Assembly (NCBI GenBank): GCA_963768855.1
Contig: CAVYJM010000011.1
Location: 1-64,000, forward strand
Direction: 5' to 3'
DNA length: 64,000 bases
Source: an uncultured Thermoplasmata archaeon
GTDB taxonomy: Archaea; Thermoplasmatota; Thermoplasmata; RBG-16-68-12
In this document: positions 2,343-34,038 of the stretch, piece after piece
Layout of the letters: each line of letters opens with the position of its first letter
How positions within the stretch are numbered: the first letter of the stretch is position 1
Made by a program: the position numbers and the translations under genes
The notes under the pieces: generated by a model
Database searches by the model: none
What the model saw: only the letters and a program-made list of their open reading frames with translations
Told to the model about the DNA's origin: nothing

Positions 2343-2831
2343 GTGATGAAGCTCTGGCAAGCCCTCTTCGCGATGATCTGGATCGCCTTCGTGGAATTCC
2401 TGATTGTGATGAGCACCCACGTGACGAACTTCGCGCCCATCGCCACACCCCTGATCTACCTGCATGCCGCCTTGGGGTTCGCGATGATCCCGCTCGCGTT
2501 CAACAACTTCAATGGGGTCCGGAATACGACGATCGCGGGTCGCGTGAAGCGCACCGCGCAGTCCACGTTCCAGCTCTCCATCCTGATGGCAATCCTCGGT
2601 GTCATCCTCCTGTTCAAGGACCAACTCTCCTGGCAAGTCCCCCTCGTGAACATTTCGCTCTTCTACATCCTGGTCTTCGTCCACGTCGTCAACGCGTTCG
2701 CCATCATCACGCAAGCTGCAGCCGTCGCAATCGCCTACGACATGTGGGAGGACAAGGAGTTCAACCAGGAGACGAAGCCGGGCGAGATCCCTGCCATGCC
2801 CACCCCGCCGAAGCCGGCCCCGAAGCCGTAG
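2343..2831 (+). CDS. Hypothetical membrane protein (~4 TM)
   Basis: 162-aa ORF with four hydrophobic segments and a Pro-rich tail. Confidence 0.75.
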   Translation: MMKLWQALFAMIWIAFVEFLIVMSTHVTNFAPIATPLIYLHAALGFAMIPLAFNNFNGVRNTTIAGRVKRTAQSTFQLSILMAILGVILLFKDQLSWQVPLVNISLFYILVFVHVVNAFAIITQAAAVAIAYDMWEDKEFNQETKPGEIPAMPTPPKPAPKP

Positions 2832-25386: not shown

Positions 25387-26415
25387 ATGGCGAAGGCGAA
25401 ACGGGGTGTGGCTCGCTCGCGGAAGACGGATCGCGCCGGCCTGCTCGAGCGCCTGGAAAAAGGAATTGTCCTCGGGGACGGCGGCTACCTCCTGGAACTG
25501 GAGAAGCGCGGATATGTCCAGGCCGGACCCTTCACCCCGGAGTGCGTGCTGGACCACCCTGAGGCGGTGACGGAACTCCATCGGGAGTTCGTCGATGCCG
25601 GTGCGGAGTTCCTCCAGGCCCTCGCCTTCTACGCGAGCCGCGACAAGCTCGCCACGACCGGTCACCAGGACGACGCGAAGGCGATTAACCGTCAGGCGGT
25701 CCGCCTCGCCCGGAAGGCGGCGGGTCCCGACACCCTGGTCGCGGGGAACCTCAGCCTTACTTGGGCCTACGATGCGAAGGACGCGAGGTCGGCGAACCGC
25801 GTCCGGAAGCTCTTCGACGAGCAGCTCGAGGTCCAGCAGAGGGAGGGCGTCGACTTCGTCGTGGCGGAGACGTTTTCCTGGTTGGGAGAGGCGCTGCTCG
25901 CAACCGAGCGGATCAAGAAATCGGGGGCCGTCGCCGTGGTCACGATGTCGTTCGACAAGAAACCCCTCTCCTACGACGGCCACACCCCGGCTGAGTGTGC
26001 GCACGCCCTTCGGGACGCCGGTGCCGACGTCGTGGGGGTGAACTGCCTCCGGAACCCCTTCTACATGCTCCCGATCGCCGAGGAGATGCGGCGGGCCGTC
26101 ACGGGGCACGTCGCATGCCAGCCGACGGCCTACCGCACCCCGGCCGATCAGCCGGATTTCACCGCCGCAAAGGAGTTCCCGTTCGAGACCGAGACGCTCC
26201 TCCTCTCGCGGCGCGACATGGCCGCCTACGCGAGAGCGGCGCGCGACCTCGGCCTCGACCTGATTGGCTCGTGCTGCGGCTCCCTTCCCGTCCACGTCCG
26301 GGAGATGGCACGCGCCCTGGGGAAGCGGTCCCCGGACCCCGAGTGGCGGGTGGACTACGGGAAGCCGATGTCCGCGTACGAGTACTACGGCCACGGCCGG
26401 GACGCTGCCCCGTAG
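25387..26415 (+). CDS. Homocysteine S-methyltransferase family protein (BHMT-like)
   Basis: DGGYLLELEKRGYVQAGPFTPE, VGVNC and IGSCCG zinc ligands. Confidence 0.88.
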   Translation: MAKAKRGVARSRKTDRAGLLERLEKGIVLGDGGYLLELEKRGYVQAGPFTPECVLDHPEAVTELHREFVDAGAEFLQALAFYASRDKLATTGHQDDAKAINRQAVRLARKAAGPDTLVAGNLSLTWAYDAKDARSANRVRKLFDEQLEVQQREGVDFVVAETFSWLGEALLATERIKKSGAVAVVTMSFDKKPLSYDGHTPAECAHALRDAGADVVGVNCLRNPFYMLPIAEEMRRAVTGHVACQPTAYRTPADQPDFTAAKEFPFETETLLLSRRDMAAYARAARDLGLDLIGSCCGSLPVHVREMARALGKRSPDPEWRVDYGKPMSAYEYYGHGRDAAP

Positions 26416-26433: not shown

Positions 26434-26468
26434 TCACCGGAACGGGTTCCCGCAGTAGAAGCAGAACA
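26434..26468 (-). other. Displaced original 3' end of the subtilase gene (FCFYCGNPFR*)
   Basis: Reverse complement reads (A)TG TTC TGC TTC TAC TGC GGG AAC CCG TTC CGG TGA, in frame with the subtilase codons at the right repeat. Confidence 0.85.
26449..26468 (+). repeat. Left attachment-site core CCCGCAGTAGAAGCAGAACA
   Basis: Identical to 32257-32276. Confidence 0.95.
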
Positions 26469-26527
26469 GTTCTCCCGCCGTCCTATGGAGGGGAACCTAT
26501 CCCTTTGGACCGCATAGGCGCGTTTTG

Positions 26528-27307
26528 ATGGAGCGACTTAGGTACTTGACCGCTGTCGAAGCGGCTAGGCTGAAGGACGCTGTCCGGTCCAATCGCGACC
26601 GGGCCGTCGTGGGCATCCTCCTCCATACGGGGATGAGGATAGGCGAGTGTGCGGGCCTCCAGGTGCGGGACTTTGACCAGGAGGCCCAGACGATTCGTAT
26701 CGAGCGAATCGTCGTCAAGACCAACTCGGTCATCGACCGGGCCACCGGGGAACTGCGGGTGAAGCGGCTCGGGTTCCAGAACCTGCACAGCGCGTACAAG
26801 AAGGGGCGGTCCATCTCCCTGGTCCTCCCGGACGGGACCATCAAGGTGGTCATCGCGAGCGAACTGCCGCGGGTCCTCGGGCCGGAATCGGAGTTCGTGA
26901 AGGTCGGGACCAAGGCCCACGGGGACGCGGGCCGCACGGTCCCGCTGACCGACGCGCACACCTGGGAGTACGTCAAGGCCGAGACCGTCGGCCGCGACCG
27001 CACCGCCTGGGCCTGGAGGGCGGGGGCGCAGGGACACGACCGCACGGGCGACGTGGGGCGGTACTCGTACACGGGCATGAGGGACATGGTGATCCGCGCG
27101 ATGCTGCGGGCCGGAATCCCGCACGACAAGGCCCACCCGCATACGACCCGGCACACGTTCGCGGTCCACTTCCTGAAGAACGGCGGGGACCTGCGGACCC
27201 TCCAGCGAATCGGCGGCTGGGCCAACATCAACATGTGCGCCCGGTACCTGGAGTTCGTGACCGAGGACCTGGTCGAAGTCTCGCGGCGGGTCCAGGTGGG
27301 CTACTGA
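26528..27307 (+). CDS. Tyrosine recombinase/integrase (catalytic domain only, with insertion)
   Basis: HTGMRIGE (R), GTK (K), HTTRHTF (HxxR), GGWAN (W), CARY (Y); 259 aa. Confidence 0.93.
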   Translation: MERLRYLTAVEAARLKDAVRSNRDRAVVGILLHTGMRIGECAGLQVRDFDQEAQTIRIERIVVKTNSVIDRATGELRVKRLGFQNLHSAYKKGRSISLVLPDGTIKVVIASELPRVLGPESEFVKVGTKAHGDAGRTVPLTDAHTWEYVKAETVGRDRTAWAWRAGAQGHDRTGDVGRYSYTGMRDMVIRAMLRAGIPHDKAHPHTTRHTFAVHFLKNGGDLRTLQRIGGWANINMCARYLEFVTEDLVEVSRRVQVGY

Positions 27308-27444
27308 TGTTCGCGAAGGCGTACACCGAGACACGGTGGACCGAATCCGGGAACGTGCGACTCCGCATCTACGGGGTGTTCTGGGGACGGTTCGCGTTCG
27401 CGGTCTCGTTCGGCAGGAGGGTGCAGCGTGCCGACGCTCGCTGA
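27307..27444 (+). CDS. Small hypothetical protein (45 aa), coupled to the integrase
   Basis: TGATG stop/start overlap; MFAKAYTETRWTESGNVRLRIYGVFWGRFAFAVSFGRRVQRADAR. Confidence 0.6.
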   Translation: MFAKAYTETRWTESGNVRLRIYGVFWGRFAFAVSFGRRVQRADAR

Positions 27445-27718
27445 AGTCGTGAAGGCCATCGACGCGGACCTGGAGACAGAACGCCTCGCGCTGCTGGCCT
27501 CCATGAACCGGGTCTACGTCGCGCGGCTCCGCATCAGGAAGGCGACCGCCCTCCTGAAGAAGTTGCGGCCCCTGGTCGAAACGGTAGCCATCGAGGCCAT
27601 CGAGGTGCAGGTCATCGAGGGGCCGCCCGTGCCCTGTCCCGAGTGCGCGCGGACCTTCGAGACCGAACAGGGGATGCACCACCACCAGACCGTCGTTCAC
27701 CTCGAACGTTCAAGCTGA
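27428..27718 (+). CDS. Coiled-coil plus C2H2 zinc-finger protein
   Basis: CPECARTFETEQGMHHHQTVVH; AGGAGG RBS before GTG. Confidence 0.8.
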   Translation: MPTLAEVVKAIDADLETERLALLASMNRVYVARLRIRKATALLKKLRPLVETVAIEAIEVQVIEGPPVPCPECARTFETEQGMHHHQTVVHLERSS

Positions 27719-27773: not shown

Positions 27774-27912
27774 AGGTGTCGGTCCTGGAAGGCTGAACGT
27801 TCTCCCGTCTTTTGTCGGACGAATGGGATAGTTTCTTCGGTGCCCCGCTCACGGGGTCTCATGGAGGAGCCCCGACGTCTAGGTCCAAGAGCACCGGAGA
27901 AGGGGCCGACTT

Positions 27913-28284
27913 CTAGAGGCCCTGCTGCCGCTGGAATCCCGCTGCCCGGTTCCCGAACACGTACACGAGGCCGACCAGGACACCGGCCCAGAAGATGTTC
28001 CCCGCGTACTTCTGGTAGAGCTCCCGGATCATCATCGTTGTCAAGGGCAGGGGCGGCAGCTTCCCCGGGAGGTTCGCCTCCCGCTCGTGCTCGAGTTCAA
28101 TCTGCCGAGCCGCCGCCTTCGCCGCCAGTTCTCGGAGGGCCGCTTGCTGCTCAGGAGACCGATAGTAGGCACCGTGGTACGTCTGCCGCTCGGGCTGAAG
28201 TTCAATCTGCCGAGCCGCCGCCTTCGCCGCCAGTTCTCGGAGGGCCGCTTGCATCGCAGGAGACCGGTACGGGTAGCCGTCCAT
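27913..28284 (-). CDS. Element protein with tandem helical repeat and C-terminal TM
   Basis: YRSP..QAALRELAAKAAARQIEL twice; IFWAGVLVGLVYVF. Confidence 0.8.
   Translation of the reverse strand: MDGYPYRSPAMQAALRELAAKAAARQIELQPERQTYHGAYYRSPEQQAALRELAAKAAARQIELEHEREANLPGKLPPLPLTTMMIRELYQKYAGNIFWAGVLVGLVYVFGNRAAGFQRQQGL
28094..28252. repeat. Perfect 54-bp direct repeat, period 105 bp (coding)
   Basis: 28094-28147 identical to 28199-28252. Confidence 0.92.
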
Positions 28285-28290
28285 GGACCC

Positions 28291-28563
28291 TCACACCGGG
28301 ACGAACCCGCGTCCTCCGCCGCCAATCGGGGGAGGCGTCCCGCCCGTGCCGCCGGTTCCGCCCGTGCCGCCCGTGCCGCCGGTTCCGCCCGTGCCGCCAG
28401 TCTCGCCTCCGCCCGTGCCGCCAGTCTCGCCAGGGCCGAATTCGCCGACAGTAGGCACGGACACTCGTGGTCCCATCCAGAAGCCTACAGGGTGCTCTAG
28501 CGACCACGCGCGGGCCACGGTCTCCGCCGCCGCCAACAGGTCCAGTAGTCCCGTGTGCCTCAT
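28291..28563 (-). CDS. Element Gly-rich (GGT)n protein, 90 aa
   Basis: ATGA overlap with upstream gene; MRHTGLLDLL...GETGGTGGGETGGTGGTGGTGGTGGTGGTGGTPPPIG. Confidence 0.7.
   Translation of the reverse strand: MRHTGLLDLLAAAETVARAWSLEHPVGFWMGPRVSVPTVGEFGPGETGGTGGGETGGTGGTGGTGGTGGTGGTGGTPPPIGGGGRGFVPV
28337..28433. repeat. 9-bp-unit degenerate tandem repeat encoding (GGT)n
   Basis: CCGCCCGTG/CCGCCGGTT units with synonymous variation. Confidence 0.8.
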
Positions 28564-29087
28564 GCCAAACCCACCGCCCTCAGGAACGTGCCGATGAGCG
28601 GGCCGACCTGCGGCCCGAAGATTTCCCGCAGCAGGTCGTCCTCCGTGATGGCCGCGATTTCCGCCTCGGTCTCCGTGCTGCCGTACCGGCTGCTGGCCCC
28701 TCCGCCGAACGGTGTAGCCCTCCAGAAGTTGTTCCAGGCGTTGTCGAGGCCCGCCCACAGGTCGTCCGCGATGTCCACCCCGACCCAGCCCGCGACCCCT
28801 GCCGCGAGCAGGGCGAACGCCTGAGGGTCGGAGCGGTCGATGAGGTGTTCGAGGAGGCCCGCCGCGCGGTCCATCTTGAGGCGGGCCTCCGCCGCCGCGC
28901 GTTCCTGCGCGGACAGTTCCGACGGCGAGTGGTGCGCCGCCTCGCCCTTCATCCACTTGCGGCGCTGCGCGGGCGTCAGGACGTGGTACCACAGATTGCC
29001 CGCGACCTTCTCCGGGTCCGCGGCGGTCCCGCTCTCCCGGATGGCCTTGACCGCCGCGTCCCAGTACGCCTTCGGCGGTCGGTTCAC
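28560..29087 (-). CDS. Element hypothetical helical protein, 175 aa
   Basis: GTGA overlap with upstream stop; NRPPKAYWDAAVKAIRE...DPEKVAGNLWYH. Confidence 0.8.
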   Translation of the reverse strand: MNRPPKAYWDAAVKAIRESGTAADPEKVAGNLWYHVLTPAQRRKWMKGEAAHHSPSELSAQERAAAEARLKMDRAAGLLEHLIDRSDPQAFALLAAGVAGWVGVDIADDLWAGLDNAWNNFWRATPFGGGASSRYGSTETEAEIAAITEDDLLREIFGPQVGPLIGTFLRAVGLA

Positions 29088-29281
29088 GATTTCGGTCCTC
29101 CGAACGCCTTGCTGAGCGCAACCTGTTGTACCGCCGCGTGCGCAGTCCATCCGCCGAGGCCCGCGAGTGCCGCGATGACCGCCGCGAGCAGGGTGCCGTC
29201 CTGTCCCATCAGGAGGGCAACGCCCTCAATCACGGTCAGGCATCCCATCGCGAACAGTGCCTTCACGGTGTTGTCCTTCAC
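29084..29281 (-). CDS. Element small two-TM membrane protein, 65 aa
   Basis: Two hydrophobic helices; GTGA overlap; GGAGG RBS. Confidence 0.8.
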   Translation of the reverse strand: MKDNTVKALFAMGCLTVIEGVALLMGQDGTLLAAVIAALAGLGGWTAHAAVQQVALSKAFGGPKS

Positions 29282-30264
29282 TGGTTCAGTCCTCCGAGGC
29301 GGCTCAGGTCCGCGACCATGAAGTCGTCGAACAGCATGGTGGCGGTCGCCGCCGCGTCCGTCTCCACGGTCATGTCTACCGCGGTCCAGTTGATGGTCGC
29401 CGCCCCGACGTTCTGCGCCGCGGGCCGCGCCGTGGGCTCCCAGATCGCGTCATCGATGCGGGCCGACACGTAGTTCAGGTACGGGCCCGGCTGCTGCTTG
29501 TAGGCGAGTTCCACCACGAGGAGGTGCCACAGGTCCGTGTCATCCATGGGGTACGTGATGCCCGTGGACTGATAGGTCCCCGCGGAGTCCAGGTACTCCA
29601 GGGCGAAGCTGTCCGCACCCCCCTGTCTCCGGTGGTAGCGGACCGAGGCGTTGAACTCGCGGGCCGCGTCGCGCAGGTTCACCCGGAGCCACACCGACCG
29701 CCACGCGGCCGACGCGTTCGGGTTGAAGAACACCGCCGCGAAGACGGTCGGGTTCCTGTTGAACCCCTGGTCCGCCGCCCGGAGCATGGGCTTCCGCGCG
29801 GTCCCCAGGTCGCCCGCCGCCGCGCCCGCCGCGCGGCTCGCCACCGTCAGGTTGTGAATCCCGGAGTGCCCCTTCGTCGCGCCGATCGCGAGCGTCCCCG
29901 CCGCCGGAGAGCCCGCCTCGGCGTAGTTGCTAACGATGGAATTTTCGAAGTCGTCCATGTGGAGGACGCGCCCTGCCGGGTTGTTCGACCACCACGGTTC
30001 GAAGCCCGACACGCGGAGCCGCCGCGCGTGGTCCATCGTCATGTCGTACCCCTGGTTGTCCGGGACCGAGTTCGCGTACTGCCCGAAGGCTCCGAGGTGG
30101 AAGATGCCCGCCTGGTCCATCGTCCCGATGGGATAGACCCCGGTCAGGTCTAGCTTCTTCTTGATGCGGAAGGACTCGAGCAGCTGACCCAGGTTCGCAA
30201 GCTGAATCTGGTCCCCGCCCGCGAACTCCAGGGCGTCAGCCGTGTCCGTGACCGCCTTCGACAT
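29278..30264 (-). CDS. Element beta-rich protein with ConA/LamG-like C-terminal domain (putative spike or adhesin)
   Basis: LHMDDFEN...LWHLLVVEL...ARIDD...MLFDDFMV pattern; fold is inferred. Confidence 0.7.
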   Translation of the reverse strand: MSKAVTDTADALEFAGGDQIQLANLGQLLESFRIKKKLDLTGVYPIGTMDQAGIFHLGAFGQYANSVPDNQGYDMTMDHARRLRVSGFEPWWSNNPAGRVLHMDDFENSIVSNYAEAGSPAAGTLAIGATKGHSGIHNLTVASRAAGAAAGDLGTARKPMLRAADQGFNRNPTVFAAVFFNPNASAAWRSVWLRVNLRDAAREFNASVRYHRRQGGADSFALEYLDSAGTYQSTGITYPMDDTDLWHLLVVELAYKQQPGPYLNYVSARIDDAIWEPTARPAAQNVGAATINWTAVDMTVETDAAATATMLFDDFMVADLSRLGGLNQ

Positions 30265-30276
30265 GAGGAGGTCCCC

Positions 30277-30864
30277 TCAGTAGTAGACGATGGCCTGGTT
30301 CGTGTTCGCTGCGCCCGACGTGGACAGCAGAGTCAGGTTCGGCGCGGCCTTCAGGGTCGGCGCGGCCAGGACGGGCGTCCGGTACGTCATCGCCTCGGAC
30401 TCCGTGACCCACTGAAGCGCCCCGGTCTGCGGCCACTTCCAGCGGCTCGTGGACGCGGAGCAGTAGGCCGTGATGCCCTTGGGCGAGGACTGGCCCTGGT
30501 CGTAGGTGACGGTCACGCTGAAGTCGGCCTCCGCGCCCGCCGCCGTCCTCGCGAACCGGATGGCCCGGAAGGCGCTGATGGGCTTGCCTCCTTGGCCCGC
30601 GTCCGCGAAGTGCAGGACCGCCGACGACAGCCCACCGTTGAACGTGAACGTCGGCGTGGTGGACCCGAGCGGTCCCCAGGCCACGTCGAACTTGTCGTAG
30701 CCGTTCAGGGGCGACGGGAAGTGCGCGACCGCGATACCGTCGTACACCGTGGAGAGCGACCCCGGGGTCGCGCCTCCGTACACCTCGATCGCGACCAACG
30801 TGAGGCCTTGGACCGGGAGGGACACGACCCCCGTGGCGGTGAGGCGAGTGCTGTGCTTCAACAT
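30277..30864 (-). CDS. Element beta-rich protein, 195 aa (putative virion protein)
   Basis: Alternating hydrophobic strands rich in T/G/S/A, few long helices; ATG directly after the upstream TAG. Confidence 0.75.
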   Translation of the reverse strand: MLKHSTRLTATGVVSLPVQGLTLVAIEVYGGATPGSLSTVYDGIAVAHFPSPLNGYDKFDVAWGPLGSTTPTFTFNGGLSSAVLHFADAGQGGKPISAFRAIRFARTAAGAEADFSVTVTYDQGQSSPKGITAYCSASTSRWKWPQTGALQWVTESEAMTYRTPVLAAPTLKAAPNLTLLSTSGAANTNQAIVYY

Positions 30865-31014
30865 CTACGCCGCCTCCGCGTGGGGCTTGGCTCGGATGAC
30901 CCCGCCCTGGTCGTTCACGATCACGCCCGGGCACCACTCGCCCTTCATCAGGGTGCGGTTGCCGTGGTCTTTGCAGACCCAGTATCCGGTGTCCTTTTCG
31001 ACCACCAGGACCAC
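30865..31014 (-). CDS. Element 49-aa protein with Cys/His (below the ORF-track cutoff)
   Basis: GTG 3 nt after the upstream stop and TAG abutting the next ATG; VVLVVEKDTGYWVCKDHGNRTLMKGEWCPGVIVNDQGGVIRAKPHAEAA. Confidence 0.7.
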   Translation of the reverse strand: MVLVVEKDTGYWVCKDHGNRTLMKGEWCPGVIVNDQGGVIRAKPHAEAA

Positions 31015-31017
31015 CCC

Positions 31018-31458
31018 CTAGAAACTGCCTCCGCTAGGTCCCGCGAAGGACCGGATGATCCGGTTCGCGAACGCGACTCCCATCTTCACGCCCTTCACGA
31101 CGAACATCGGGCCGTACCCCACCGCGAGCCGCTGAGGCTCCCAGGTGTTGGTCGCCACGTTGTACGCCGTTAGGTTGCCCGAAAGAGCACCGAGCCCGAC
31201 GACGAGACCTTGCCGCAGGTCCCCCGCCGCGAGCCCCTCGACCGCGGCCTCAATCAGTCCGGTGGACTTCGCAATCGTGTTCGCGATTGGTGCCAGCCGG
31301 AACGAGTAGTGCCGCGTGCCCTTCTTCCCACCGCCGCCACGCCTTCCGCCGCCCTTTGCCATGTGCTTCTTGCCTCCAGAGGACCGGCCCCGACCGTGCT
31401 TCTGCTGCCAGTCGTACAGAGGGTTGCCGGGTCCCCACTTCTTGCCTTTTCGTGCCAC
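31018..31458 (-). CDS. Element protein with basic Lys/Arg/Gly N-terminal arm (candidate nucleocapsid protein)
   Basis: MARKGKKW...GRGRSSGGKKHMAKGGGRRGGGGKKG then amphipathic/hydrophobic helices; GGAGG RBS. Confidence 0.8.
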   Translation of the reverse strand: MARKGKKWGPGNPLYDWQQKHGRGRSSGGKKHMAKGGGRRGGGGKKGTRHYSFRLAPIANTIAKSTGLIEAAVEGLAAGDLRQGLVVGLGALSGNLTAYNVATNTWEPQRLAVGYGPMFVVKGVKMGVAFANRIIRSFAGPSGGSF

Positions 31459-31470
31459 CTAAATCCCTCC

Positions 31471-32040
31471 CTAGAACGGGAGTTGTTCGCCCCCTCCTCC
31501 GGTCAGCGCGGCGGGCAGTTGCAGTCCGCCGTTGCCTCGCGCCCGCAACAGTAGCGGGCCGTACTGGACGGCGGCCTTGGAGATTCGCCGCGCGGACTGT
31601 TGGCTGACGCCGAACATCTCCAGGAGACCTTCGAGCATTTCCGGGCCGAGGTCCGCCGCGACCGCCATCAAGTCAGCCTGTCCGATTGCCTGTTCCGCGT
31701 CTGGGGGGAGGAGAGAGGAACCCTGAGAGGAGCCGCCCTTGGAGCCGAGCGACTTCATGCGAATCGAGGTCCAGAACGTGTCGATTGCTGGAGCGATGAT
31801 AGGCTTGACGAGGTTCGGGTCCTTCGCGAATTCGGACATGGTCATGCCCACGAGTTTCCCGAACCCGCGACGGATGGCCGACGCGTCCGCGTCGCCGTCG
31901 TCCCCGAGGTGATCCACGGTCGCACGGAGCCGATTCATCACGTACCAGGGCGCGACGTACCGCGCCATCGTGTAGGACCACACGACCGCGAACAGCCAGC
32001 CTACCGTCTGAAGGACGCTGACCACGTCGAAACCGACCAC
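31471..32040 (-). CDS. Element N-terminally membrane-anchored protein, ~189 aa
   Basis: GGGTG RBS before GTG at 32040; TM LQTVGWLFAVVWSYTM; the ORF track extends it to a TTG at 32157. Confidence 0.75.
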   Translation of the reverse strand: MVGFDVVSVLQTVGWLFAVVWSYTMARYVAPWYVMNRLRATVDHLGDDGDADASAIRRGFGKLVGMTMSEFAKDPNLVKPIIAPAIDTFWTSIRMKSLGSKGGSSQGSSLLPPDAEQAIGQADLMAVAADLGPEMLEGLLEMFGVSQQSARRISKAAVQYGPLLLRARGNGGLQLPAALTGGGGEQLPF

Positions 32041-32232
32041 GCGAACACCCGCTGAGCGCGACGGCAGCGACCAAACAGCGAGGTTCCAGCGCGGAGCGAC
32101 CGACTCTGAACCGCCTCGTCGCCGCCGCGCTGTCGGCGCATCGCCGTTTCCACTCAAAAAACGCGTGCCGACGACCCAGCAAATTTTGCCCGCGTTCCTG
32201 GCCCTAACGTTCTCCCGTGTTCCTGGGCCCCT

Positions 32233-34038
32233 TCAGGGCCCGGACCCCATGGAGAACCCGCAGTAGAAGCAGAACATGTTGTCCGCATTCACCAGGGTGC
32301 CGCAGTTGGGGCACCGCTTCTTTGCCGCGACGGTCGAGGCGGGGGGAGGCGCGGCCGGTATGGGGGGCGGAGGCGGAGTCACGGGCTTCACGAACTCGAT
32401 CGGCGGGGGGGCCGGTGTGTACGTCTGCGTCTGCACGTTGTGCGGATAGGACGCGGTCGGTGGACCCGGAGGCGGGCCGGGAGGCGGGGCGCCGTAGCTG
32501 TAGGCGGGCGGCATCACGGTCCTCTGGCGGTATGCCGCGGTCCGGCGCGCGCGGGCGCGACGCTGGGGAACGAACGCGACGATCGCCGCGAGGGCGAGGA
32601 TGAACAGGGCGAGGTAGAGCAGGTTCGAGGACAGGAACTGGTAGAGTACGAAGAGGAAGTTGGGGAGGGGCGAAACCGCGATCGTCCTGACGGGCGACTC
32701 GTAGCGAGTCCCGTTCACGGTCGCCACGACCTTGACGGAGAGCGGGATGCCGGAATCGGGCATCACGAGGTTCGTGGCGCTGTAGGACTGACGTGTCGTG
32801 CCCGTCTGGACCGCGGTAACGTTATTCAGGGCCGCCGGGTCCGTCCCGTACACGACGTGGGTGTCGGTCACCGGGAGTCCCGCCGGCCCGATGATCGACC
32901 AGCCGATCGAGAATGTGGAACCCTTAGCGACGCTACCTGGGATGTTGTTGAGGGAGATGAAGGGCTGGTTGAGGGCGTTGACCCCGTTCCACGCGTTGAC
33001 GATCCCCCAGCCATATAGAGTGTTGTACCCGGTGCTGCCCGTCGGCACTGCGGTCTGGTTCAGGACGTTCCACAGCTCGACGTTCGTCAGGCTTGGCTCG
33101 AGGGAGAGGAGAAGCGCGGCGACGCCGCTCACGAAAGGTGTCGCAAGCGAAGTCCCGTCCAGGTTGTGCCAGCCTCCGCTCGTGGGCGGGCAGTTCGGAC
33201 AGAGGGTCACGATCTGGACGCCGGGTGCGCTGAGGGACAGGCCCGGGCCGTAATTGGAGAACACAGCTCTCGTGTTCGTCTGTCCCACGGCGGCGACGGA
33301 GACCACGTTGGGGAGGGATGCGGGGTAATCGAGAGTCGAGCTGCCGGAGTTCCCCGCGGCGGCGATGACCAAGGCGCCCTTGCTCCATGCGTAGTTGATC
33401 GCGAGCTCGATGTCGGTCGGTCCGATGAGGGTCGTGTTCGTCCCGAGGGAGAGGTTGATGATCCGCGCCCCGTGGTCCGCGGCCCATCGGATTGCGAGGG
33501 AGGTGTTGTAGGACGTGCCCTCGCCGTTCGCCCCCAGAGCTTCGAGCGCCATGACGCCCACCTGCCCGACTTGGGCCACTCCCGCCATCAGCTTGTTGTT
33601 GTTCGTCGCGGCCGCGATGACGCTCGCGACGCCCGTGCCGTGGTACGTGTTCTGGGCGCCGTCCGAATCCATCGGATTGTTGTTGTTCAGGATGAAGTTC
33701 CAGCCGTGCGACCCGTCCGTGTTGTTCCACATGTTCGGGGCGATGTCCGGGTCCGTGTACCACACGCCCGTGTCGACGACGGCGACGATAACCTTCTGGC
33801 TGCCCAGGCCGACATTCCAGGCCTTCGGCGCCTCGATCGTGTTCAGTCCCCACTGGAAATTGAAGAGGGGATCGTTTGGGGTGTACGCCGCATGCAGCGG
33901 GATGTCGGTGATTACCGCAGGAGGCACGCTGGCCGCCCGAGTTACGACGGGAGCCGCGAGCGAGACGAGCAGCGTGAGGACCGCAATGATCGCGACGGAG
34001 GTCCGTGAGAGGGAGCGCACAGAATCGGCTTGCTGCAA
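32233..34038 (-). CDS. S8 subtilase with signal peptide, TM anchor, Pro-rich linker and C-terminal zinc ribbon
   Basis: VAVVDTG (D), HGTGVAS (H), AAAGNSG, GTSLATP (S); CPNC...CFYC. Confidence 0.95.
   Translation of the reverse strand: MQQADSVRSLSRTSVAIIAVLTLLVSLAAPVVTRAASVPPAVITDIPLHAAYTPNDPLFNFQWGLNTIEAPKAWNVGLGSQKVIVAVVDTGVWYTDPDIAPNMWNNTDGSHGWNFILNNNNPMDSDGAQNTYHGTGVASVIAAATNNNKLMAGVAQVGQVGVMALEALGANGEGTSYNTSLAIRWAADHGARIINLSLGTNTTLIGPTDIELAINYAWSKGALVIAAAGNSGSSTLDYPASLPNVVSVAAVGQTNTRAVFSNYGPGLSLSAPGVQIVTLCPNCPPTSGGWHNLDGTSLATPFVSGVAALLLSLEPSLTNVELWNVLNQTAVPTGSTGYNTLYGWGIVNAWNGVNALNQPFISLNNIPGSVAKGSTFSIGWSIIGPAGLPVTDTHVVYGTDPAALNNVTAVQTGTTRQSYSATNLVMPDSGIPLSVKVVATVNGTRYESPVRTIAVSPLPNFLFVLYQFLSSNLLYLALFILALAAIVAFVPQRRARARRTAAYRQRTVMPPAYSYGAPPPGPPPGPPTASYPHNVQTQTYTPAPPPIEFVKPVTPPPPPIPAAPPPASTVAAKKRCPNCGTLVNADNMFCFYCGFSMGSGP
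32257..32276 (+). repeat. Right attachment-site core
   Basis: Identical to 26449-26468; lies inside the subtilase zinc-ribbon codons. Confidence 0.95.

Follow-up and report, generated by a model that had tools for sequence, protein, structure and literature searches.

A probable small virus-like element with a compact tyrosine recombinase in the terminal zinc-ribbon codons of a Thermoplasmata subtilase gene

Coliphage 21 and e14, which reside in icd, carry a replacement 3' end for the gene that they enter, and the gene product survives. Among archaeal elements that integrate outside tRNA genes, BJ1, Msmi-Pro1, NitGar-E6 and PsiM100 are larger than the element described here and have integrases of ordinary size. 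The targets in this group include a gene for HMG-CoA reductase (BJ1), an AsnC gene (NitGar-E6) and an intergenic region (PsiM100) (reviewed by Badel et al. 2021, PMC8371274). According to the same review, recombination at protein-gene and intergenic sites was untested in 2021, and the symmetry of these sites is posed there as a question (PMC8371274). Krupovic and coworkers (2019, PMC6563490) described NitEve-E2 of Nitrososphaera evergladensis SR1, which occupies the 3' end of a zinc-finger gene with a 13-bp att and supplies the stop codon. In the Thaumarchaeota, 14 of 68 mapped elements lie at the 3' ends of protein genes, and one orthologous gene was hit by two unrelated elements (PMC6563490).

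The window analyzed here, a 64,000-nucleotide stretch of one contig from an uncultured Thermoplasmata archaeon, contains a 5,808-bp insertion that is delimited by an exact 20-bp repeat and carries a tyrosine integrase (Table 1). It is likely that a circular element of 5.8 kb, probably a small temperate archaeal virus or a satellite, integrated into the last codons of a subtilase gene by site-specific recombination through its tyrosine recombinase. In its site the locus resembles NitEve-E2, since both have a short att in the end of a zinc-finger gene and replace the host stop codon. NitEve-E2 replaces 8 nucleotides, whereas the repeat in the window lies over two metal-ligand codons and four residues are exchanged for seven; the host here is a member of the Thermoplasmata and the inserted unit is virus-like. 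The tail exchange is thus a known kind of event, of which this locus is a further clean example, and the NitEve-E2 precedent (PMC6563490) lowers the novelty of the tail swap.

The element shares with BJ1, Msmi-Pro1, NitGar-E6 and PsiM100 an intact integrase gene beside the att and a coding or intergenic target, but its integrase has only 259 residues, lacks the N-terminal domain and contains a beta-rich insertion, and its siblings use both types of target. As in the SSV1/pTN3 and SNJ2/pNOB8 types, the tyrosine recombinase belongs to a small archaeal virus-like or plasmid-like element, with a putative 7-bp overlap between inverted repeats. In contrast to the suicidal SSV1/pTN3 type, the integrase gene does not contain the att, which lies 60 bp in front of its start; the gene is left unsplit and has the same start in circular siblings. 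Unlike the attB of SNJ2, pNOB8 and SSV, the attB here is not in a tRNA gene (the window has none, and the site of one sibling, L082, is intergenic). Phage 21 and e14 supply a long homologous gene end, whereas only 13-20 bp are homologous in the window and the last residues are foreign.

Table 1. Features of the insertion in the window and of two related insertions (positions refer to the window unless a contig is named)
Feature	Position	Strand	Remarks
Displaced ancestral subtilase tail, NPFR and stop	26434..26448	-	
Repeat copy, integrase end	26449..26468	-	26462-26468, putative 7-bp strand-exchange region; 26455-26461, putative host half-site
Element arm	26469..26490	-	putative half-site CGGGAGAAC and CTCCATAGG motif 13 nt from the exchange region
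Intact 259-aa tyrosine integrase	26528..27307	+	starts 60 bp inside the repeat; beta-rich insertion at about residues 60-120
Two small ORFs behind the integrase	27307..27718	+	45 and 96 aa; the longer one weakly matches a C2H2 zinc finger
Virion-like operon, nine ORFs	27913..32040	-	195-, 146-, 65- and 175-aa products have relatives in siblings
Non-coding motif (A-run, CGCG, spacer, A/T-run)	32125..32200	.	also in L082, L086 and L331; one copy in the genome
Element-supplied tail FSMGSGP and stop	32233..32256	-	FSM codons overlap the second CTCCAT(A/G)G arm motif; GC-rich hairpin over the stop
Host S8 subtilase, target gene	32233..34038	-	signal peptide, membrane anchor, Pro-rich linker, C-terminal zinc ribbon
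Repeat copy inside the gene, (M)FCFYCG	32257..32276	-	second zinc-ribbon knuckle
5-kb sibling element	L082:9968-15002		integrase 65% identical; 195-aa protein in common with the window element
68-bp insertion in subtilase codons, tail SKVD	L003 / G036:C92 about 2470-2540		family arm sequence and internal 6-bp inverted repeat

The 20-mer occurs exactly twice in the 2.87-Mb genome, for which about 3e-6 copies of a 20-mer of the same composition are expected by chance. Since the genome has 43 exact 20-bp repeats at spacings of 1-10 kb, such a repeat is no rarity in itself, and the case for an element rests on context: the integrase begins 60 bp inside one copy, and relatives have the empty site. 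The minus strand of the repeat reads as the last two bases of a Met codon followed by FCFYCG. The subtilase now ends FCFYCG-FSMGSGP, with the insertion falling within the second CxxC knuckle, and the displaced copy at 26434-26468 reads (L)FCFYCG-NPFR and a stop. This reading confirms the first-pass annotation, which had placed the repeat core over the second knuckle and had set the tail NPFR against FSMGSGP. Its proposal that the target is a protein-coding 3' end and not a tRNA gene holds as well, as the repeat lies in the subtilase end and no tRNA gene was found in the window; the four cysteines are all kept and only the last residues are rewritten, as it had stated. The stop codon that restores the subtilase frame is an element-supplied TGA at 32233-32235. 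When the host sides are joined in silico they yield an end of NMFCFYCGNPFR and a stop, identical to the end of a 98%-identical orthologue (P0200). Both junctions are present with zero differences in separately assembled contigs, the sample of which may be the same as that of the window. The subtilase is a membrane protein with the Pfam domains Peptidase_S8 and Zn_ribbon_3, and its orthologues carry Thermoplasmata names in public sources.

The native end of the gene, CG-x-[PR]-[FL]-R and a stop, is found in 26 of the 28 genus genomes with the gene end recovered. Native-type tails are likewise present in 118 of 119 metagenomic orthologue clusters with a scorable tail, and the end xPFR in 103 of the 119. 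P0200 (598 aa), which falls in the same 90% cluster as the 601-aa subtilase of the window, ends FCFYCGNPFR. The native tails of the orthologues, P0200 included, thus identify FSMGSGP as element-derived. The genome G005 has an empty site: its subtilase gene directly abuts, end to end, the homocysteine methyltransferase gene that flanks the element in the window. Element-free relatives had been predicted to end CFYCGNPFR; P0200 does so, and G005 together with the orthologue tails marks NPFR as ancestral. FYC is present in 28 of the 119 orthologues and nearly all of these have native tails, so the codons are insufficient for occupancy.

The integrase has the catalytic residues R37, K129, H205-x-x-R208, W231 and Y240. 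Among 22 family sequences, R37 and K129 are invariant, and H205, R208 and Y240 are found in at least 90%. The protein matches PF00589 (E 1e-23), and its predicted fold is confidently that of a tyrosine recombinase (pLDDT 85) with best matches to XerA and to integron and phage integrases. There is no N-terminal core-binding domain, and the catalytic Arg is at residue 37 throughout the family. Tyrosine recombinases that consist of the catalytic domain only exist. The genome holds a single copy of the integrase. The integrase is preceded, at a distance of 110 bp, by the homocysteine S-methyltransferase gene (25387-26415), which has the same orientation and reads toward it, so read-through could drive integrase expression in the integrated state; the subtilase gene likewise points into the operon of the element.

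No replication or packaging protein was recognized in the element, and it gave no Pfam or PHROG match beyond the integrase. A 328-aa element protein lies near an unnamed, mostly viral cluster (0.97), and single-sequence folding of the 195-aa protein gave an unusable model (pLDDT 37); the Atlas matches of this protein were below 0.9. The non-coding motif at 32125-32200 is a candidate promoter or origin for elements that lack a recognized Rep. CGGGAGAAC is present three times in the non-coding parts of the element (26469-26477, 27799-27807 and 32209-32217) where 0.13 occurrences are expected, and it is a candidate binding site of the integrase or of a regulator. A 123-aa ORF contains an internal duplication of 105 bp and an 89-aa ORF a 9-bp tandem of GGT repeats (spans 28071-28269 and 28330-28452). 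Neither an excised circle nor a joined form of the element was seen in four runs (contigs, partial cover). In one run a contig at host depth begins exactly at 32257 and coverage of the element contigs is much lower; this hints only weakly at a mixed population and is not taken as evidence for one.

Close relatives of the integrase number about 21, most of them 46-76% identical, and a few dozen are recovered by profile search; all lack the N-terminal domain and have the beta-rich insertion. Five sibling contigs of 4.9-7.8 kb (L086-L089 and L329) have terminal repeats and a sixth (L357) has an exact period of 5,996 bp, so these siblings assemble as circles; circularity was not demonstrable for the contigs L330 and L331. 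Membrane, basic and beta-rich proteins make up a module that the siblings share and that is loosely conserved. L084 (1-13781) holds a tandem of two related units, each about 6.9 kb, with blocks 70-90% identical; their integrases differ greatly in sequence and are 31% and 48% identical to that of the window. In L356 (2104-7334) the same structural module (221, 128, 201 and 274 aa) lies beside a serine resolvase and a DNA cytosine methylase with no tyrosine integrase, so the recombinase looks interchangeable. In L085 and L088 a short CxxC ORF of about 40 aa abuts the integrase start directly upstream. The family, with elements of 5-8 kb that are often circular, have no recognizable replication gene and carry an integrase without the N-terminal domain, is apparently undescribed; no published description was found in a literature collection with few subscription journals. 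Further members were not found in 38 genus, 79 order and 401 class genomes, a result that does not amount to absence because these genomes are incomplete. Integrase and alignment scans of viral, metagenome and genome contig collections returned generic integrases only, because the search patterns fell on universal motifs, and the junction sequence and the 195-aa protein had no match in IMG/VR.

One sibling could be placed at a second kind of site. By alignment, the element of L082 lies in intergenic, AT-rich DNA with a HerA-like gene on one side and a 2-oxoacid oxidoreductase gamma gene on the other, and it is flanked by a duplication of exactly 7 bp. The proteins encoded next to it are 83-96% identical to those of the window genome, in which the corresponding site is empty (C17, about 94817-94991). 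The insertion may affect the promoters of both neighboring genes. Since this sibling is intergenic, the family is not tied to zinc ribbons. A short-word search of the upstream regions of the siblings against the window genome gave noise only.

The subtilase gene itself carries an insertion in a second genome, G036, in which it ends FCFYCG-SKVD. Here a 68-bp insertion, which includes a 12-bp duplication of the same core, is followed by the displaced tail NPFG and a stop. The proposal that the native end is rewritten at these codons is thereby strengthened by a second insertion at the same position. The insert matches the arm of the sibling L330 (0 of 2000 shuffles) and that of L329 (p about 0.004), which are two of the closest integrase relatives, and the arm pattern has a single exact match in 44 genomes, which is the scar itself. 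Since the scar carries arm sequence of the element family, the subtilase site was probably hit twice and the scar is probably a remnant of another family member, as judged from sequence. The half-site CTTCTAC is found at the gene end in only 2 of 28 genomes, those of the window and G036, both of which have an insertion (p = 0.037 without the window genome). The scar is known from one metagenome-assembled contig. Its putative 7-bp region is identical at 0 of 7 positions between the two ends: the 7-mer of the host persists at the left junction, whereas an unrelated one, with its flanks intact, is found at the right. These unequal 7-mers would fit equally well a mismatch tolerance like that of CTnDOT or a crossover inside the 12-bp repeat.

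The mapped insertions suggest a model of the recombination sites. In the window and in L082 alike, the duplicated sequence starts 13 nt from the CTCCATAGG motif, right after a GAA(C/G) half-site, which suggests that strand exchange takes place over 7 bp at the start of the repeat (26462-26468), as in sites of the lambda type. The integrase would recognize short half-sites with a consensus of roughly G-T/G-AGAA-G/C/T on both sides of this putative region, which would span the Met-Phe-Cys codons, and the host Phe-Tyr codons would form the other half-site. Because these codons happen to spell a good half-site, the target would be the DNA sequence and not the zinc ribbon as such. The remaining 13 bp would be an element-borne copy of the host codons, with the element itself supplying F-Y-C-G, so the fourth Cys would survive in the manner in which tRNA-targeting elements restore a gene end. 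L329 and L330 have the same inverted arrangement around a different 7-mer, and the 7-mer differs among all siblings. The half-site model is post hoc, having been drawn up from two mapped integrations, a single scar and two or three circles, and the left half-site of the host agrees poorly with the consensus. The reconstructed circle also contains another 7-bp inverted repeat, centered inside the 20-mer. The central TTCTACT is a less favored candidate for the exchange region, as the spacing in L082 argues for the first seven bases of the repeat.

Much of the new tail would be read-through of the element arm up to an in-frame stop, and excision would restore NPFR exactly. The arm motif has two copies only in the element, one on each side of the core, and the second coincides with the FSM codons, so the tail would be constrained by its role as DNA. 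In both foreign tails the third position, that of the conserved Phe, is occupied by a hydrophobic residue (Met in the window, Val in G036), as it is in most natural ribbons of the window genome, so the swap is probably tolerated and the new tail appears probably near neutral for the subtilase.

Instead of an integrase core, the repeat could in principle be a target-site duplication, or homology-driven insertion could have produced it. The unequal lengths of the repeats in the three cases (20, 12 and 7 bp) would be in keeping with this, but no transposase and no terminal inverted repeats were found in the element, an intact tyrosine recombinase lies beside the junction, as far from it as in L082, and the siblings assemble as circles, which together make the duplication reading very improbable. 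The first-pass annotation had suggested instead that zinc-ribbon codons could offer multiple target sites, and a lineage that targets CxxCG-coding DNA at many ribbon gene ends would shuffle their tails. Zinc ribbons are available in the host: about 20 other C-terminal CxxCG ribbons of the genome agree with the 20-mer in 9-15 of its 20 positions. Further, the ribbon end SCFYCGHPFTRSP of a membrane protein with a Pro-rich linker (G000:C7, about 41320, minus strand) matches the core at 17 of 20 positions; its mismatches lie in the first seven bases, a 16-bp match covers the right part of the core, and it is the best candidate for a secondary site. The tail SKVD of G036 also resembles a natural ribbon end of the window genome (CGSKV and a stop), and a zinc-finger gene end is used by the thaumarchaeal element. 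However, all of these other ribbons, including that of C7, are empty and differ in the 7-bp region, and the three homologous insertions mapped comprise one intergenic case and two in the subtilase, with no other ribbon gene. Homologous integrases had been expected beside zinc-ribbon gene ends, with location at unrelated sites to count against the idea, and the integrase of L082 is at such a site. The half-site pattern in 44 genomes corresponds to the two known junctions and three matches in ordinary coding DNA, which have no duplication and are attributed to chance, and no further copies of the integrase or the structural genes were found in the 79-401 genomes searched. Shuffling of tails across many ribbon genes is accordingly quite unlikely.

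The integrase might also behave like those of Tn916 and CTnDOT, requiring one good half-site, tolerating a mismatched 7-bp region and using many degenerate sites, in which case the two insertions in the subtilase would reflect the best half-site available and not a dedicated target. A possible tolerance of mismatched overlaps, suggested by the scar in G036, is what the family would share with Tn916/Tn1549 and CTnDOT (PMC2817482), and the junction pattern of this scar is that left by heteroduplex junctions after replication (IntDOT, PMC2817482). The 7-mer that varies among all siblings and the absence of an arm-binding or a core-binding N-terminal domain point in the same direction; the Tn1549 Int is among the fold matches of the integrase, a match that is non-specific. 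Against this, the 7-mers are identical at both ends in the window and in L082 (7 of 7), that is, in two of the three mapped cases, the 13 further host-identical bases in the window element suggest adaptation to the site, and the scar may equally stem from a crossover within its 12-bp repeat. The family also differs from Tn916 and CTnDOT in having no conjugation genes and, in comparison with their enzymes, no arm-binding domain. A mismatch-tolerant integrase of this type is considered unlikely. Under the preferred reading of site-specific integration, lineages of the family would be adapted to different non-tRNA sites, and the subtilase end would be a locally reused one.

The target and the tail swap are real and recurrence at the subtilase gene is probable; the new part is a family of small circles with a small integrase and variable short targets. 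The 259-aa enzyme, its fully reconstructable pair of sites, the 7-bp core of a sibling and the natural scar together provide a test case for a specific and testable site model. Genome engineers, too, might take an interest in so small an integrase with changeable short targets. A broader scenario, which is doubtful on present evidence, is that these are undescribed archaeal viruses of 5-8 kb with no recognizable replication gene and with a compact tyrosine recombinase that lacks the N-terminal domain, for which one 7-bp half-site is enough and a mismatched overlap is tolerated. Such viruses would enter and leave many non-tRNA sites, codons at zinc-ribbon gene ends included, and their short scars would permanently rewrite C-termini. 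A family of 5-8 kb circles with no tRNA target and no known marker gene would escape searches that depend on tRNA repeats or on viral hallmark genes.
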